Origin: a virus
Taxonomy: Duplodnaviria > Heunggongvirae > Uroviricota > Caudoviricetes
Virus record (IMG/VR): IMGVR_UViG_2734482566_000010
Reading direction: 5' to 3' (one strand)
Length of the DNA: 4,277 bases
Part shown: one piece after another, positions 1-4,277 of the stretch
Layout: each line of letters starts with the position of its first letter
Numbering within the stretch: the first letter of the stretch is position 1
Notes under the pieces: generated by a model
The model's database searches: none
The model's input: the letters and a program-made list of their open reading frames with translations, nothing else
What the model was told of the DNA's origin: nothing
Translations under genes and position numbers: made by a program

Positions 1-75
1 GCGGACAGCATCAGTAACGAAAGTATTTAGCGGGCATGAAAATGGCAAATAACGGTCAAACATCGTGGCGTTGAC

Positions 76-140
76 ACAATTGCGATCTTTTCCTGTGTGG
101 TACGCCGTCTGCGTTTCTCCGGCCCTAAGACATCAATCAT
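76..140 (-). pseudogene. IS2 orfA (InsC-like) 5' fragment; reads [22 protein letters not shown] then diverges and stops at 26-28
   Basis: Minus-strand ATG at 138-140 followed by the characteristic IS2 OrfA N-terminus; frame leaves IS2 homology after ~22 codons. Confidence 0.6.
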
Positions 141-231
141 CTGTACTCCAATGACTAGTCTAAAAACTAGTATTAAGACTATCACTTATTTAAGTGATAC
201 TGGTTGTCTGGAGATTCAGGGGGCCAGTCTA
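76..231 (-). mobile_element. IS2 left-end fragment (terminal inverted repeat plus first ~22 codons of orfA), truncated at ~76
   Basis: Reverse complement of 76-231 matches my recollection of the IS2 left end (TAGACTGGCCCCCTGAATCTCCAGACAACC...ATGATTGATGTCTTAGGGCCGGAGAAACGCAGACGGCGTACC...) with one or two mismatches. Similarity stops after GCAATTGT; 1-75 is unrelated sequence. Confidence 0.8.
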
Positions 232-351
232 CGGACATTTTCTGCCTGTGGACCAGGAAAGTGCACGGGTGCTTTCCACTCCCATGAAGCCCGGCAATCC
301 GCGCAGATACAGTAATAAACGAACTGACAGCAGTAAGATGGAGCGTTTCTT

Positions 352-609
352 TTGAACAACCAGACAATGACTTTTACCCCTGAACAATTGCGTAAACACG
401 CGCAGGAAATGCTGCGTCATGCTGAACAACTCGAAAAAACGGGCATAACAAAAGACGCTATCCGTAAAGATATGGTACCCGCGCTTCGGGAACTGATGCA
501 GGCGAAGCATCGCGCACAGAAAGCAGTAGATGAGCTGGTGGACTGTGTGGCAGAGCTGGAAACCAGAGTCGGAAAGTTTGAAAAACTGGTGCAGGAGGTG
601 CTGCGCTGA
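352..609 (+). CDS. hypothetical phage protein (85 aa, helical/coiled-coil-like, no Cys motif)
   Basis: ORF with TTG start at 352 preceded by GGAG at 340-343 (alternative ATG at 367). Stop TGA 607-609 overlaps the rusA ATG at 609-611, indicating translational coupling. No family recognised. Confidence 0.6.
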   Translation: MNNQTMTFTPEQLRKHAQEMLRHAEQLEKTGITKDAIRKDMVPALRELMQAKHRAQKAVDELVDCVAELETRVGKFEKLVQEVLR

Positions 610-983
610 TGCGCCATGAGTTTATTTTACCTTATCCGCCGACGGTGAATACTTACTGGCGACGTCGTGACAACACATATTTTGTATCAAAAGCCGGTGA
701 GCGTTATCGCCGGGATGTGGCGCTTATTGTCCGTCAGCAGCGACTGAAATTAAGCCTGTCCGGAAGACTGGCGATAAAGATTATTGCAGAGCCACCGGAT
801 AAGCGCCGTCGTGACCTGGACAATATCCTGAAAGCACCACTGGATGCACTGACACATGCGGGAGTGTTAATGGACGATGAGCAGTTTGATGAAATCAATA
901 TCGTTCGTGGTCAGCCAGTATCTGGTGGACGTCTGGGGGTGAAGATTTACCCCATAATGCATGAAGAGCAGGTCAAAAAATGA
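609..983 (+). CDS. rusA: RusA-family crossover junction endodeoxyribonuclease (Holliday junction resolvase), 124 aa
   Basis: Strong AGGAGG at 593-598, 10 nt before the ATG. Protein shows the RusA signature LPYPP..N.Y, VS..G..YR, PD.RRRDLDN (catalytic Asp pair), DAL..AG...DD.Q and GGRL, collinear with E. coli RusA as I recall it. Confidence 0.9.
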   Translation: MRHEFILPYPPTVNTYWRRRDNTYFVSKAGERYRRDVALIVRQQRLKLSLSGRLAIKIIAEPPDKRRRDLDNILKAPLDALTHAGVLMDDEQFDEINIVRGQPVSGGRLGVKIYPIMHEEQVKK

Positions 984-1801
984 AACTGGAAGATTTACCG
1001 AAATACTACTCCCCAAAATCCCCTTGCCTGACCGATGCATCGGCCTCAACGTCAAAAGATGCGCTGAGTATCACTGATGTGATGGCCGCGCAGGGCATGA
1101 CACAGAATCGGGCTGAGATGGGGTTTTCTGCGTTCCTGGGGAAAATGGGCATCAGTATGAATGACAGGGCGCGGGCAACAGAATTACTGGCAGATTATGC
1201 ACTCAGTCGGTGCGATCGTGTGGCGGCGTTGAGAAAACTTCCGGCAGAAATAAAACCGGTAGTGATGCGCATTATGGCTTCGTACGCTTTTGAGGATTAT
1301 GCCCGCAGCGCAGCGAGTAAAAAGCAGTGCCCTTGTTGCTATGGGGAAAAATTTATTGAAAGCGTAGTTTTTACAAACAAGGTCCAGTATCCGGATGGTA
1401 AGCCGCCGGTATGGGCAAAGTGTACGAAAGGTGTGTATCCGTCTTACTGGGAAGAATGGAAAAAAGTCAGGGAGGTGGTAAAAGTTGCCTGTCCGGAGTG
1501 TGGCGGAAAGGGTGAGGTTTCCACCGCCTGTAAGGATTGCCGTGGGCGTGGTGTCGCCATTCATCGTGAAGAGTCGGTAAAACGTGGTATGCCTGTTATC
1601 AGAGACTGCCAGCGTTGTGGTGGTCGTGGCTATGAAAGACTACCATCAACGGAGGCATTTAATGCTATATGCGAGGTGACAAACCAGATAACACGCGCGT
1701 CATGGGAAAAAACAGTTAAGAAATTTTATGATGCGCTGGTGACCCGGTTTGATATTGAAGAAGCATGGGCTGAGCGGCAGTTAAAAAAGGTAACTAGGTA
1801 A
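980..1801 (+). CDS. Q: Late-gene antitermination protein Q (lambda Q family), 273 aa, with expanded Cys-rich central module
   Basis: ATGA overlap with the rusA stop. N-terminus (..SPKSP....TDVMAA.GM....FGK...S.ND...) and C-terminus (CxDCxGxG...CxRCxGxGY.R.P.....W..TVK..YDALV......V.R) align with lambda Q as I recall it. Followed immediately by a PR'-like promoter. Confidence 0.85.
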   Translation: MKLEDLPKYYSPKSPCLTDASASTSKDALSITDVMAAQGMTQNRAEMGFSAFLGKMGISMNDRARATELLADYALSRCDRVAALRKLPAEIKPVVMRIMASYAFEDYARSAASKKQCPCCYGEKFIESVVFTNKVQYPDGKPPVWAKCTKGVYPSYWEEWKKVREVVKVACPECGGKGEVSTACKDCRGRGVAIHREESVKRGMPVIRDCQRCGGRGYERLPSTEAFNAICEVTNQITRASWEKTVKKFYDALVTRFDIEEAWAERQLKKVTR

Positions 1802-1806
1802 CAAGG

Positions 1807-1846
1807 TTGATTTTTCCGGAATCTGTGGTAAATTCGTTATAACGAT
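1807..1846 (+). promoter_or_regulatory. Late promoter PR' with Q-utilisation pause element (-35 TTGATT 1807-1812, -10 TAAATT 1829-1834, AACGAT 1841-1846)
   Basis: 16-bp spacer. The -10 hexamer and the downstream ACGATGGG with 7-nt spacing are identical to lambda PR' and its sigma70-dependent pause site as I recall them. Sits directly after Q. Confidence 0.75.
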
Positions 1847-1881
1847 GGGCGTTTTATGCCTGACGTTAGAAGAGTTTCTAC

Positions 1882-1905
1882 AACCCGCCGCCGAGCGGGT
1901 TTTTT
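1882..1905 (+). terminator. Intrinsic terminator (tR'-like) ending a short PR' leader transcript of about 65 nt
   Basis: Stem AACCCGC (1882-1888) / GCGGGTT (1895-1901), loop CGCCGA, T-run 1900-1905. Confidence 0.7.
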
Positions 1906-2025
1906 ATGACTGAAATCGCGTCAGTACAGTAAACGCGCTGGTGGCGGTGAATACCTGTCTTTCAGCTTGCTGGCTTTTTCGACAAGAGTTATTGGTGTGT
2001 CACGTTAACCGGAAAAGGAAAAGAC

Positions 2026-2223
2026 ATGCTAAAACAGCAGGATATGACAGAAACCGCCAGAGTGGTGTTTAATGAATTAAGCGTTACCGAACCGGCGACA
2101 GTCGGGGAGATAGCGCAGAATACTTACCTTTCACGCGAACGCTGCCAGTTAATACTGACCCAGCTGGTTATGGCGGGTCTGGCAGACTATCAGTTCGGTT
2201 GTTACAGACGCCTTCCGCAGTGA
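2026..2223 (+). CDS. small hypothetical protein (65 aa), putative helix-turn-helix DNA-binding protein
   Basis: ATG 2026 preceded by AAGGA at 2015-2019 (6-nt spacer). Segment ATVGEIAQNTYLSRERCQLILTQLVMAGL resembles an HTH/winged-helix recognition unit. Stop codon lies inside a terminator hairpin. Confidence 0.5.
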   Translation: MLKQQDMTETARVVFNELSVTEPATVGEIAQNTYLSRERCQLILTQLVMAGLADYQFGCYRRLPQ

Positions 2224-2233
2224 AGGCTTTTTT
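2210..2233 (+). terminator. Intrinsic terminator overlapping the stop codon of the 65-aa ORF
   Basis: Perfect 6-bp stem GCCTTC (2210-2215) / GAAGGC (2222-2227), loop CGCAGT, followed by TTTTTT at 2228-2233. Confidence 0.7.
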
Positions 2234-2250
2234 ATTTGTGGTAAATGGGC

Positions 2251-2281
2251 GGCTGGTGGGTGTTAGGGGCACCCACCAGCC
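2251..2281. repeat. 12-bp perfect inverted repeat (GGCTGGTGGGTG / CACCCACCAGCC) with 7-nt spacer
   Basis: Arms 2251-2262 and 2270-2281 are exact reverse complements. No U-tract follows on either strand, so it is not an intrinsic terminator. Confidence 0.6.
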
Positions 2282-2393
2282 ATCTGCTCATGCGTTGGGT
2301 TCACAAGCAAACCTCAGGCCCACTGCTTTGCGCAAAAGCAGAATGAGCCTATCAGAGACAGGCTTAATGATCCATGCTTAATACTGTAAAAAT

Positions 2394-2683
2394 NNNNNNN
2401 NNNNNNNNNNNNNNNNNNNNNNNNNNNNNNNNNNNNNNNNNNNNNNNNNNNNNNNNNNNNNNNNNNNNNNNNNNNNNNNNNNNNNNNNNNNNNNNNNNNN
2501 NNNNNNNNNNNNNNNNNNNNNNNNNNNNNNNNNNNNNNNNNNNNNNNNNNNNNNNNNNNNNNNNNNNNNNNNNNNNNNNNNNNNNNNNNNNNNNNNNNNN
2601 NNNNNNNNNNNNNNNNNNNNNNNNNNNNNNNNNNNNNNNNNNNNNNNNNNNNNNNNNNNNNNNNNNNNNNNNNNNNNNNNNNN
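2394..2683. other. Run of 290 N (assembly gap or masked sequence)
   Basis: Directly visible. Nothing inside can be annotated; ORF-track segments translated as X are artefacts. Confidence 1.
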
Positions 2684-3475
2684 GAAATCATGATGCGTGA
2701 ACGCTTCAGTGTGCTGAACCATATTATCTGGGCGAAGCCGTCCGGACGCTGGAACGGATGCAACAAGGAAAGCCTGCGGGCGTATTTCCCCGCCACAGAG
2801 CGCATTCTGTTCGCGGAACATTATCAGGGGCCGTATCGTCCGAAAGATGCCGGGTATGCGGCGAAGGGCAGTGCACTGAAACAGCATGTGATGGCCCCGC
2901 TGATTTCTTACTTTCGTGATGCGCGAGCTGCCCTGGGGATAACGGCAAAACAGATTGCAGATGCCACAGGAAAGAAAAACATGGTGTCGCACTGGTTCAG
3001 TGCCGGTCAGTGGCAGTTGCCGAATGAAAGCGATTATCTGAAATTACAGGCGCTGTTTGCCCGGGTGGCAGAAGAGAAGCATCGGCGTGGTGAACTGGAA
3101 AAGCTCCACCACCAGCTGGTGGATACGTATACCTCACTGAACCGGCAGTATGCGGAGCTGCTGAGTGAATATAAACATCTGCGGCGGTATTTTGGCGTGA
3201 CGGTGCAGGTGCCGTATACCGATGTGTGGACGCATAAACCGGTGCAGTTCTATCCCGGGAAACATCCGTGCGAAAAACCGGCAGAAATGCTGCAGCAGAT
3301 AATCAGCGCTAGCAGTCGTCCGGGTGACCTGATTGCAGATTTTTTCATGGGGTTGGGTTCGACAGTGAAAGCGGCACTGGCGCTCGGGCGTCGTGCAATT
3401 GGCGTTGAGCTGGAGACTGAACGTTTTGAGCAGACGGTTCGGGAAGTACAGGATTTAGTCAGCCAGAACGGATGA
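2684..3475 (+). CDS. DNA methyltransferase, beta-class N6-adenine/N4-cytosine type (N6_N4_Mtase-like), 5' end lost in the N-run
   Basis: C-terminal HPCEKPAEMLQQIISASSRPGDLIADFFMGLGSTVKAALALGRRAIGVELE matches the HP.xKP...GD.V.DPF.GSGTT...LGR..IG.E SAM-binding block (motif X + motif I) of beta-class MTases. N-terminal visible part has the IIWAKP motif. No DPPY-type catalytic motif in the visible 261 aa, so it must lie upstream in the gap. Frame is open from the first non-N base. Confidence 0.8.
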   Translation, partial: EIMMRERFSVLNHIIWAKPSGRWNGCNKESLRAYFPATERILFAEHYQGPYRPKDAGYAAKGSALKQHVMAPLISYFRDARAALGITAKQIADATGKKNMVSHWFSAGQWQLPNESDYLKLQALFARVAEEKHRRGELEKLHHQLVDTYTSLNRQYAELLSEYKHLRRYFGVTVQVPYTDVWTHKPVQFYPGKHPCEKPAEMLQQIISASSRPGDLIADFFMGLGSTVKAALALGRRAIGVELETERFEQTVREVQDLVSQNG

Positions 3476-3477
3476 TA

Positions 3478-3506
3478 TTGAAGAATTAATTACGCGTCGT
3501 TATTAT
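3478..3506 (+). promoter_or_regulatory. Putative sigma70 promoter for the tRNA array (-35 TTGAAG 3478-3483, -10 TATTAT 3501-3506)
   Basis: 17-bp spacer; -10 lies about 10 nt upstream of the first tRNA 5' end. Confidence 0.5.
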
Positions 3507-3515
3507 GCGGCTCCC

Positions 3516-3591
3516 GGCCCTTTAGCTCAGTGGTGAGAGCGAGCGACTCATAATCGCCAGGTCGCTGGTTCAAATCCAGCAAGGGCCACCA
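3516..3591 (+). tRNA. tRNA-Ile2 (anticodon CAU, ileX/ileZ-like; formally CAU could also be Met)
   Basis: Hand-folded cloverleaf: 7-bp acceptor GGCCCTT/AAGGGCC, D-arm GCTC..GAGC, anticodon loop CTCATAA (CAT at 3549-3551), T-arm GCTGG-TTCAAAT-CCAGC, encoded CCA. Close to E. coli ileX as I recall it. Confidence 0.85.
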
Positions 3592-3598
3592 TCACATA

Positions 3599-3675
3599 CC
3601 GCCATTAGCTCATCAGGAAAGAGCGCCAGCCTTCGAAGCTGGCTGCGCGGGGTTCAAGTCCCCGATGGCGGTCCA
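3599..3675 (+). tRNA. tRNA-Arg (anticodon UCG)
   Basis: Acceptor CCGCCAT/ATGGCGG (7 perfect bp), U8, D-arm GCTC..GAGC, anticodon stem CCAGC/GCTGG with loop CTTCGAA (TCG at 3633-3635), T-arm CGGGG-TTCAAGT-CCCCG, encoded CCA. Confidence 0.8.
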
Positions 3676-3688
3676 TTATCTGCATCAT

Positions 3689-3746
3689 GCGTTGTTAGCT
3701 CAGCCGGACAGAGCAATTGCCTTCTAAGCAATCGGTCACTGGTTCG
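3689..3746 (+). tRNA. tRNA-Arg (anticodon UCU, argU/argO-like), 3'-truncated after GGTTCG of the T-loop; probable pseudo-tRNA
   Basis: Acceptor 5' strand GCGTTGT, D-arm and anticodon arm ATTGC-CTTCTAA-GCAAT are intact (TCT at 3723-3725) and homologous to argU up to GGTTCG. No complementary T-stem 3' strand, no ACAACGC acceptor 3' strand and no CCA downstream. Confidence 0.6.
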
Positions 3747-3766
3747 CTTTTGCGGGCCTTTTTTTT
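3741..3766 (+). terminator. Intrinsic terminator built on the remnant T-arm of the truncated tRNA
   Basis: Stem GGTTCGC (3741-3747) / GCGGGCC (3752-3758), 7 bp with two G-U pairs, loop TTTT, then an 8-T run at 3759-3766. Confidence 0.6.
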
Positions 3767-3963
3767 AAATGTCTCACAATTCAGACGGTTGACAGTTGTC
3801 TGTTTTGCGGGGAGTTTGTTAAAAGAAACTGGCATGGTGAATCCCCCTGTGCGGAGGGGCAATCAGCGAGTAGGTATATGGGATAATCGCGGATTCAGGT
3901 GCTGGTACTGAATTCACCGGGAGGCACCCGGCATCATGCAATGGCACATAGCGCCACTCTCCA

Positions 3964-3986
3964 GCCCTCTCCGGAGGGGCTTTTCT
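3964..3986 (+). terminator. Putative intrinsic terminator ending a possible small RNA
   Basis: GC-rich palindrome CCCTCTCCGGAGGGG followed by CTTTTCTG. Confidence 0.45.
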
Positions 3987-4170
3987 GTGCCGGATACATC
4001 ACAGTTTCTGGAACCTTAGGTACTACAGTATCAGTCAGGGTGCTATATTTTCAGATGTGATGAAAGCCTGTCAGCAGGCAGGGCGTATCGGAAATGACCC
4101 AGTAGAGAAAACGTTGACTCAGATACCGGTGCTGAGTTACCGGGAAACCGGCATCACATGACCGCTATCC

Positions 4171-4277
4171 TGAGGTGTACTGGCAATAGCGGACACTACC
4201 ATTTGTTCTTTTTTTAAGCAGCCATCTGATGATATTTTTCCCTGAAGGCTGCCGGGGAGATATTCCCCAGACGAGAG
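4171..4277 (-). mobile_element. IS3-family insertion sequence, right end (IRR), continuing beyond the window
   Basis: Terminal sequence TGAGGTGTACTGGCAATAGCGGACAC has the TG...CA terminus and the GCAATAG.GGACAC core resembling IS3 inverted repeats. A transposase C-terminus is encoded just inside it on the minus strand. Confidence 0.7.
4214..4277 (-). CDS. IS3-family transposase (OrfB) C-terminal fragment, partial at window edge
   Basis: Minus-strand frame reads ...SRLGNISPAAFREKYHQMAA then stop (4214-4216). The LG..SP..F motif is typical of IS3-family DDE transposase C-termini. Stop lies 43 bp inside the IR terminus. Confidence 0.65.
   Translation of the reverse strand, partial: SRLGNISPAAFREKYHQMAA

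Follow-up and report, generated by a model that had tools for sequence, protein, structure and literature searches.

A late-control region between insertion sequences in a Shigella-type genome, very probably from a toxin-less relative of Shiga toxin phages

The 4,277-nucleotide (nt) stretch of IMG/VR virus record IMGVR_UViG_2734482566_000010 (the window) is very probably a fragment of the late-control region of a lambdoid prophage of the Shiga toxin (Stx)-phage type, without toxin genes and bounded by insertion sequences (IS) in a Shigella-type genome. An earlier reading of the letters alone (the original prediction) had proposed a complete late-control cassette of the antiterminator gene Q, the late promoter PR' and the terminator tR', followed by accessory cargo and no lysis genes, and had seen in it either a late region in which host-modifying cargo takes priority or a defective prophage. 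The cassette was present close to where it had been placed. The arrangement had looked unusual because it was compared with lambda alone. As judged by comparison of sequences, the layout is standard in Stx-converting phages and in thousands of stx-less Escherichia coli prophages, and was already known. Cargo does lie between PR'/tR' and the lysis genes in this group, as a cargo-rich late region would have it, but this is not a departure from the norm, and the priority position of the cargo departs from lambda only.

This reading rests on gene content, gene order, homology, the IS junctions and a 39-bp deletion. We compared the window by megablast with 5426 complete E. coli genomes and 50,697 phage records, and applied Pfam, PHROG, Rfam and ARAGORN searches and terminator and promoter scans to it. 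Positions 606-4171 were collinear with common E. coli prophages at 93-96% identity, and 319 phage records, mostly of Stx-converting phages, matched the window. The order in these relatives is rusA, Q, a 65-amino acid (aa) open reading frame (ORF), a methyltransferase (MTase) gene, tRNA-Ile, two tRNA-Arg genes, accessory genes, holin, YdfR/DUF1327, lysozyme, Rz and terminase. The window has the order of the Stx-phage type, namely Q, PR'/tR', the small ORF, the MTase gene, the ileZ-argN-argO tRNA genes and a gene of the STnc100 family of small RNAs (sRNAs), with the third tRNA gene truncated. This conserved late layout has been described in reviews (PMC8065619, PMC7547250). Since no stxAB lies between the tRNA genes and the downstream late genes, the fragment belongs to a toxin-less relative rather than to an Stx phage; neither Stx2A nor Stx2B had a match in a six-frame tblastn search of the window. 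STnc100 follows stx2B in the Stx2a-converting phage Stx2_EH1910 (tRNAs, stx2AB, STnc100) and follows the tRNA genes in stx-less relatives, and its position directly after the tRNA genes means that the window shows the empty stx slot. The features of the window are as follows.

1-78, plus strand: 3' end of an IS21-family element (end of istB and terminal repeat), inserted in an IS2 copy
79-231, minus strand: fragment from the left end of IS2 that includes the start of orfA, interrupted by the IS21 element
232-351, plus strand: final 120 nt of a gene for a DnaB-like replicative helicase, cut off by IS2
352-609, plus strand: 85-aa ORF of unknown function in nin-region position (PHROG 2565)
609-983, plus strand: rusA, Holliday-junction resolvase gene (PF05866, PHROG 34)
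980-1801, plus strand: late antiterminator Q, lambda-Q family (QuuQ type), 273 aa (PF03589)
1807-1846, plus strand: PR' late promoter and sigma70-dependent pause element, by homology to lambda PR'
1882-1908, plus strand: tR' intrinsic terminator (terminator scan, fold)
2026-2223, plus strand: 65-aa ORF, winged-helix-like (PHROG 331)
2210-2233, plus strand: intrinsic terminator overlapping the end of the 65-aa ORF (terminator scan)
2251-2281, plus strand: inverted repeat of 12 bp without mismatches, between the 65-aa ORF and the MTase gene
2374-3475, plus strand: beta-class N6/N4 DNA methyltransferase gene with 290 N inside, 2394-2683 (PF01555)
3478-3506, plus strand: promoter-like site before the tRNA genes (consensus match only)
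3516-3591, plus strand: tRNA gene with CAU anticodon, ileZ-type tRNA-Ile2 (ARAGORN, Rfam, RefSeq)
3599-3675, plus strand: tRNA-Arg(UCG) gene, argN-type (ARAGORN; Rfam, 58 bits)
3689-3746, plus strand: truncated tRNA-Arg(UCU) gene, argO-type, 5' two-thirds (alignment)
3741-3766, plus strand: terminator-like hairpin followed by T8 (terminator scan)
3803-3992, plus strand: prophage sRNA gene of the STnc100/PasD family with its own terminator at 3963-3985 (Rfam RF02076)
4172-4277, minus strand for the transposase: end of IS600, inside which the window stops

The Q gene encodes a protein of the PF03589 family (183.7 bits against a cut-off of 26.7) and of PHROG 127, 'anti-termination protein Q-like' (E=1.4e-110). 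Residues 1-113 and 182-273 aligned to lambda Q structures (PDB 7ubm/7ubn and 4mo1; E=1.5e-40), with residues 182-273 paired to lambda 116-207 and CKDC/CQRC opposite CRDC/CGRC, which matches the zinc-binding CxxC core; the overall identity to lambda Q is 31%. Between the two halves is an insert of about 66 aa (window 1319-1522, residues ~114-181) that has extra CxxC pairs and weak matches to DnaJ-type zinc fingers. A Q of exactly this sequence is very frequent in E. coli (7505 blocks of the collection), so that Q with this insert is a standard QuuQ-type variant. An identical Q is encoded in L037, a contig nearly identical to the window, and in L020, a prophage that is 99.6% identical to window 231-1907 and retains holin, lysozyme and Rz. 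The Q gene is apparently intact in the window.

Directly 3' of Q are PR' and its pause element, followed by tR', as expected of the cognate promoter of a lambda-type Q. The -35 element is TTGATT (1807-1812), the -10 element is TAAATT (1829-1834), and AACGAT (1841-1846) begins six bases after the -10 element. In the alignment, TAAATT, the 6-nt spacing and AACGATGGG are common to lambda PR', Stx2_EH1910, E. coli ATCC 11775 and the window. By analogy with lambda, transcription would start at 1841, with sigma70-dependent pausing at AACGAT. The tR' hairpin (1882-1901) has a 7-bp stem with five G-C pairs and is followed by TTTTTT; relatives retain this hairpin with different stem sequences. The leader RNA from PR' to tR' is predicted to be about 65 nt long, and the leader folds with -21.4 kcal/mol (z=-2.1).

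The predicted cargo after PR' was found: the 65-aa ORF, the MTase gene and two tRNA genes are there. The MTase gene holds the 290 N and the third tRNA gene is truncated. The 65-aa ORF belongs to PHROG 331 (E=1.4e-37), a family of unknown function. Its match to TrmB was weak (18 bits, below the cut-off of 25.6), and its homologues are named 'TrmB family transcriptional regulator' or 'DprA-like winged helix' at NCBI. An AlphaFold2 model had three helices at low confidence (pLDDT 60.8), and its top Foldseek matches were winged-helix domains at a non-significant E of about 1. The ORF probably encodes a winged-helix protein. In 19 loci it lies 150 nt upstream of the MTase start, and in the same 19 loci the left arm of the 12-bp repeat at 2251-2281 is invariant and the changes in the right arm are all C>T or A>G. 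Since such changes keep G.U pairs only in plus-strand RNA, the repeat is likely to act as an RNA hairpin of the plus strand and not as a DNA operator.

Terminators had also been predicted between the items of cargo. One follows the 65-aa ORF (2210-2233; 6-bp stem, then TTTTTT; -8.9 kcal/mol), but none lies between the MTase gene and the tRNA genes, where a promoter-like site is found instead (3478-3506; TTGAAG-17-TATTAT, nine of 12 positions matching the consensus, by consensus match only). Applied to the cargo as morons, this gives terminators after the 65-aa ORF and after the tRNA genes, and a promoter-like site before the tRNA genes only; a generic promoter scan of the window detected no promoter for the 65-aa ORF or the MTase gene. 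The terminator scan found 11 terminator-like sites in the window, where shuffled sequences had 4.3 +/- 2.1.

The C-terminal 261 aa of the MTase scored 91.5 bits against PF01555, and a full-length relative of 349 aa scored 148.2 bits. The FMGLGS motif is present; the DPPY region falls inside the 290-N gap, and relatives read TDPPYF there. No restriction endonuclease gene adjoining the MTase gene was found among the ORFs of the window. We considered and rejected a match of the MTase and the small ORF to the rRNA methyltransferase/PNB-2 pair of phage phiPA8, whose enzyme is an MT-A70 protein with DPPW encoded elsewhere in the phage, whereas the window enzyme is of PF01555, with DPPY in its relatives (PMC10810198). 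The 65-aa ORF and the MTase gene together (window 1908-3475) form a precise presence/absence unit: in loci without this module (L003-L022) the T-run of tR' is joined directly to the sequence after the MTase stop codon.

The first tRNA gene (3516-3591) was called tRNA-Met(cat) by ARAGORN and scored 72.5 bits in Rfam; the same sequence is annotated as tRNA-Ile in the RefSeq entry of ATCC 11775. Relative to ATCC 11775, SF-088 and the near-identical L037, an alignment showed that 39 bp are missing after window 3746. The deletion takes the 3' third of tRNA-Arg(UCU), for which ARAGORN made no call and Rfam gave 22.5 bits against a gathering score of 29, and it inactivates this tRNA gene. It also fuses the tRNA remnant to the terminator that follows the cluster. 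The terminator proposed at 3741-3766 is therefore a genuine terminator-like hairpin (-11.3 kcal/mol, z=-2.9), but one created by the deletion. The deletion junction had no exact-pattern match in genome, viral or metagenome contigs nor at the other loci, and a protein look-up had no record of the two small ORFs that run across it.

The STnc100 gene scored 123.6 bits against RF02076 (gathering score 47; E=8e-28) over model positions 1-206, and belongs to that family. STnc100/PasD is a described family of prophage sRNAs linked to PF03589-type Q genes (bioRxiv 10.64898/2026.05.13.724894). The gene lies just outside the range covered by the original prediction, and only about 57 nt separate it from the post-tRNA terminator. 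In enteroinvasive E. coli (EIEC) O121 the order is tRNAs, STnc100 twice and nanS-p. Two tandem STnc100 copies are present in stx-less relatives (L043 9186-9376 and 9654-9863); in L034 a copy lies at 10528-10743. IS600 in the window lies just upstream of where a second copy would begin. A second STnc100 match (21.8 bits at 4031-4219) and weak Rfam matches to isrK (18.9 bits), Trp leader and P26 were below threshold and were not used.

As predicted, no lysis cassette was found in the window. Six-frame tblastn with 14 holin, endolysin, spanin and related late proteins (YdfR, NanS-p), 13 of them from the lysis region (holins, endolysins and spanins, with YdfR from next to them), yielded no match better than E=0.045, and small ORFs in 3695-4060 had no lysis-family or PHROG match. 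The lysis genes are unseen because the window stops 1-2.5 kb short of the position that they occupy in every intact relative. From the Q stop codon to IS600 at 4172 the window has 2.4 kb, and the distance from the Q stop codon to the holin gene is 3.4 kb in ATCC 11775 and SF-088 (holin 1027 nt past the point matching window 4171), 4.9 kb in EIEC O121 (2535 nt past that point, with nanS-p between) and 6.7 kb in Stx2_EH1910, in which stx2AB, iraM and nanS-p intervene. With cargo of 3-7 kb from Q to holin as the norm, finding no lysis genes after PR' is uninformative in a 4-kb window of this group. The identical 65-aa ORF occurs in 32001 blocks of the collection; among ten diverse loci that carry it behind three families of Q, lysis genes lie downstream in all ten, and the order including the MTase gene is the same in nine, L027 having no MTase gene called after the ORF. 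L035 matches window 2684-3746 at 100% and 3736-4171 at 99.5% identity, and without an IS600 it runs into nanS-p, holin and DUF1327; its arrangement is the ancestral state.

The two ends of the fragment are IS junctions. Window 1-1907 is 99.4% identical to L013-L015, L017-L019 and L022, in which istB (PF01695) ends at the match to window 17. The E. coli matches to the left end are annotated 'IS21 family helper ATPase IstB' and IS3-family transposase. We presume that the boundary between IS21 and IS2 is near 78, as read from the sequence and from that of IS2, and the minus-strand ORF at 27-185 starts with what we take to be the N-terminus of IS2 OrfA before it diverges. Homology to prophage DNA begins at 231. 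The insertions are nested, with the IS21-family end interrupting IS2 orfA and the IS2 end truncating the helicase gene, and the same junction occurs in complete Shigella-type genomes. On the right, 4172-4277 matches, at 99-100% identity, copies in E. coli that bear the annotation 'IS3-like element IS600 family transposase', and collinearity with relatives stops at 4171. This IS600 junction was found in none of the 5426 complete E. coli genomes, in all of which the site is unoccupied, and had no exact-pattern match in genome, viral or metagenome contigs. Exact look-ups of the Q protein and of the 65-aa ORF led only to E. coli prophages with other surroundings.

Because IS2/IS21 truncate the helicase gene, IS600 interrupts the right side and one tRNA gene is truncated, the prophage is a defective remnant that would no longer be able to act as a phage. 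The suggestion of a defective prophage holds for these lesions (IS2/IS21 at 231, IS600 at 4172 and the truncated tRNA gene); the absence of lysis genes follows from the length of the window. As IS2/IS21 removed everything upstream of the 3' end of the helicase gene, Q is cut off from its early promoter. In the L013-type genomes the Q stop codon is lost through a deletion of 8 bp (AGGTAACA), which yields a 284-aa product running into PR' (L013 11440-11500, about window 1790-1850); the pause element there is AACTAT and not AACGAT, and the module of 65-aa ORF and MTase gene is absent. The control cassette appears to be decaying in the L013-type lineage and intact in the window. Where complete Shigella-type genomes have the same left junction as the window, a late-region IS600 is followed by inverted, unrelated prophage genes (Dam, resolvase).

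Contigs nearly identical to the window bear on the N-run. L037 (GCA_900485225.1) is 99.96% identical to window 1-2393, 100% to 2684-3746 and 99.6% to 3736-4277, and is gapless here. Its MTase gene has a 7-bp duplication (GAAGCCT) and a frameshift, that of L041 has a CAG>TAG stop, and in L038-L040 the same gene carries N-runs of 250-266 nt. By these lesions the MTase gene reads as a pseudogene in the closest contigs; in the window its integrity is unreadable because the 290 N interrupt it. Relatives have 247 nt opposite the 290 N, which puts the flanks in the window out of frame. The N-run at 2394-2683 most likely marks a gap in the scaffold of a short-read draft assembly, with its size estimated. 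An exact look-up of the 261-aa ORF that begins right after it returned eight contigs only, and this 'MTase ORF' evidently arises from assembly gaps or from real lesions in a few Shigella-type draft contigs.

The sister contigs L038-L040 are pieces of 6.4-7.4 kb with IS600 on both sides. The scaffold L036 (6280-7998) passes through IS600 into ospC4, a gene of the virulence plasmid pINV; we rejected the reading beyond IS600 as an assembly chimera through a repeated IS. Contig context across IS600 is not trustworthy in these drafts. Three observations point to a Shigella or EIEC host, namely ipaH-type genes (PF12468/PF14496) close to this left junction in complete genomes sharing window 1-1907, the sister scaffold with ospC4/pINV, and the NCBI names 'Shigella sonnei' and 'Shigella sp.' on proteins identical to the small ORFs.

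Upstream of Q, the helicase remnant corresponds in alignment to the end of a gene for a replicative DNA helicase in E. coli SF-088 (L002 4725-6125), and L016, L020 and L021 have a complete 463-aa PF03796 helicase gene upstream of an identical 85-aa ORF. The 85-aa ORF matched PHROG 2565 (E=1.2e-32) and nothing above cut-off in the Pfam search, and the exact protein occurs in 2758 blocks of the collection. RusA scored 61.3 bits against PF05866 (cut-off 22.8) and matched PHROG 34 (E=8.5e-56).

In Stx phages, the stx genes come after Q and before S-R-Rz and are under pR' (PMC8065619), and PR' is constitutive, with transcription terminated at tR' until Q acts (PMC7547250). From this we infer promoter activity, pausing and antitermination for the window. 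PR' would fire constitutively, and RNA polymerase would pause at +16/17 owing to the AACGAT element and stop at tR' after about 65 nt. Q would engage the paused polymerase and allow read-through of tR', of the terminator after the 65-aa ORF and of that after the tRNA genes. In the intact ancestor, transcription would have passed through the winged-helix ORF, the MTase gene, the rare-codon tRNA genes and STnc100, before reaching nanS-p, holin, DUF1327, lysozyme and Rz, which are 1.0-2.5 kb farther on. In the remnant, Q would be made only by read-through from outside or be supplied in trans by a related resident prophage. As to the lysis cassette of the source genome, it would be unseen because an IS600 was inserted upstream of it and the window, probably a scaffold from short reads, ends in that element.

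Several points weigh against reading the window as a toxin-less late-control region of Stx-phage type in one piece. The generic promoter scan was below threshold at PR' (8/12 matches by our count), and the Q-binding element is not recognisable by sequence. Different prophage contexts give the best matches to the left half (1-1907) and to the right half (from 1908 on), and the join across the gap rests on scaffolding, although the gapless L037 has the same join. The content of the 290 N and the DNA beyond either IS are out of view.

What happened beyond IS600 can be explained in two ways. The chances are about even that the distal late region was lost or moved elsewhere by recombination between copies of IS600, which left the control module with its cargo. 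This is consistent with the IS at both ends of the fragment and the truncated helicase gene, with the IS600-bounded pieces L038-L040, with the L013-type genomes, which have an IS600-associated rearrangement, the Q-stop deletion and AACTAT, and with a junction found in no complete E. coli genome; yet there is no direct view past IS600, and short-read assembly of a simple insertion would also yield IS-bounded contigs. Such a simple insertion, in which IS600 interrupts a complete late operon, is possible but rather less probable. It would place a second STnc100, nanS-p and holin-lysozyme-Rz directly beyond the element, with the continuation TTCCAGGCCCATCCGCTCCGG and a 3-bp target duplication at the far IS600 flank. 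The sequence up to the junction is 98-100% collinear with late operons that run into lysis genes, and L035 has the same allele uninterrupted. However, every near-identical contig ends in IS600 or crosses into unrelated pINV DNA (the chimera), the complete genomes sharing the left junction have Dam/resolvase and not lysis genes after their late-region IS600, and the left side of the element is already destroyed.

It is improbable that the window is an artefact in which a remnant of IS21/IS2, 85-aa ORF, RusA and Q was joined to the cargo of another prophage through the tR' repeat and the scaffold gap. Complete genomes with the identical left junction do lack 1908-3475, and the 290-N gap and sister scaffolds with single-N joins and one proven chimera invite the suspicion. 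L037 spans 1-2393 and 2684-4277 without a gap here at 99.6-100% identity, though, and in E. coli this Q is naturally followed by either arrangement of the module; even with an artefact, both halves would remain late regions of the ordinary kind. We consider it very unlikely that the fragment was kept in the Shigella lineage for a benefit to the host through an StxS-like leader RNA, the tRNAs, STnc100/PasD, the winged-helix protein and MTase, and Q in trans. If so, the constitutive PR'-tR' leader of about 65 nt could serve as an StxS-like regulatory RNA, and all products of the fragment could be switched on by the same-type Q of other resident prophages. A special arrangement that gives host-modifying cargo priority over lysis, as something unusual, is hardly credible: the cargo does precede the lysis genes and would be transcribed first by Q-modified polymerase, but the layout is a common one (the 32001 blocks with the 65-aa ORF, the 319 phage records and the reviews; PMC8065619).

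Taken together, we propose that the locus marks the empty stx slot of a toxin-less Stx-phage relative in a Shigella-type genome and records how IS elements degraded it step by step. Its N-run and its ends in IS elements should be taken as assembly features and not as biology, and the locus would matter little beyond its correct annotation.

Compared with known systems, the window would share with Stx phages the control of late genes by Q at PR' (PMC8065619, PMC7547250). With Stx2_EH1910 (LC567834; 933W/Sp5 layout) it has in common rusA, a quuQ-type Q, PR'/tR', the 65-aa ORF, the MTase gene, tRNA-Ile2, two tRNA-Arg genes and then STnc100, at 92% nucleotide identity over window 375-3629. It differs from that phage in having no stx2AB, a truncated third tRNA gene and IS at both ends, and in that nanS-p and the lysis genes are not in view. 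Like the IS-fragmented lambdoid remnants of Shigella, it is a late-region piece bounded by IS600 and other IS in a pINV-bearing lineage. Shigella dysenteriae type 1 has an IS600-flanked stx locus, from which the window differs in lacking the toxin genes. With lambda, the window shares the PF03589 family of Q, TAAATT, the 6-nt spacing and the pause element AACGATGGG, and it differs in the insert of about 66 aa in Q. The leader is 194 nt long in lambda and is predicted to be about 65 nt in the window. In lambda, S starts 677 nt after the Q stop codon, whereas the intact relatives of the window have at least 3.4 kb from the Q stop codon to holin, with cargo between. Among the stx-less relatives, ATCC 11775, SF-088 and EIEC O121 201805972 have an intact third tRNA gene, no IS600 at the position equivalent to 4171, and a DUF968 gene before rusA where the window has the 85-aa ORF. 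They share with the window the empty stx slot with STnc100 and the collinear sequence over 606-4171, and continue from there into (nanS-p), holin, DUF1327/YdfR, lysozyme, Rz and terminase.

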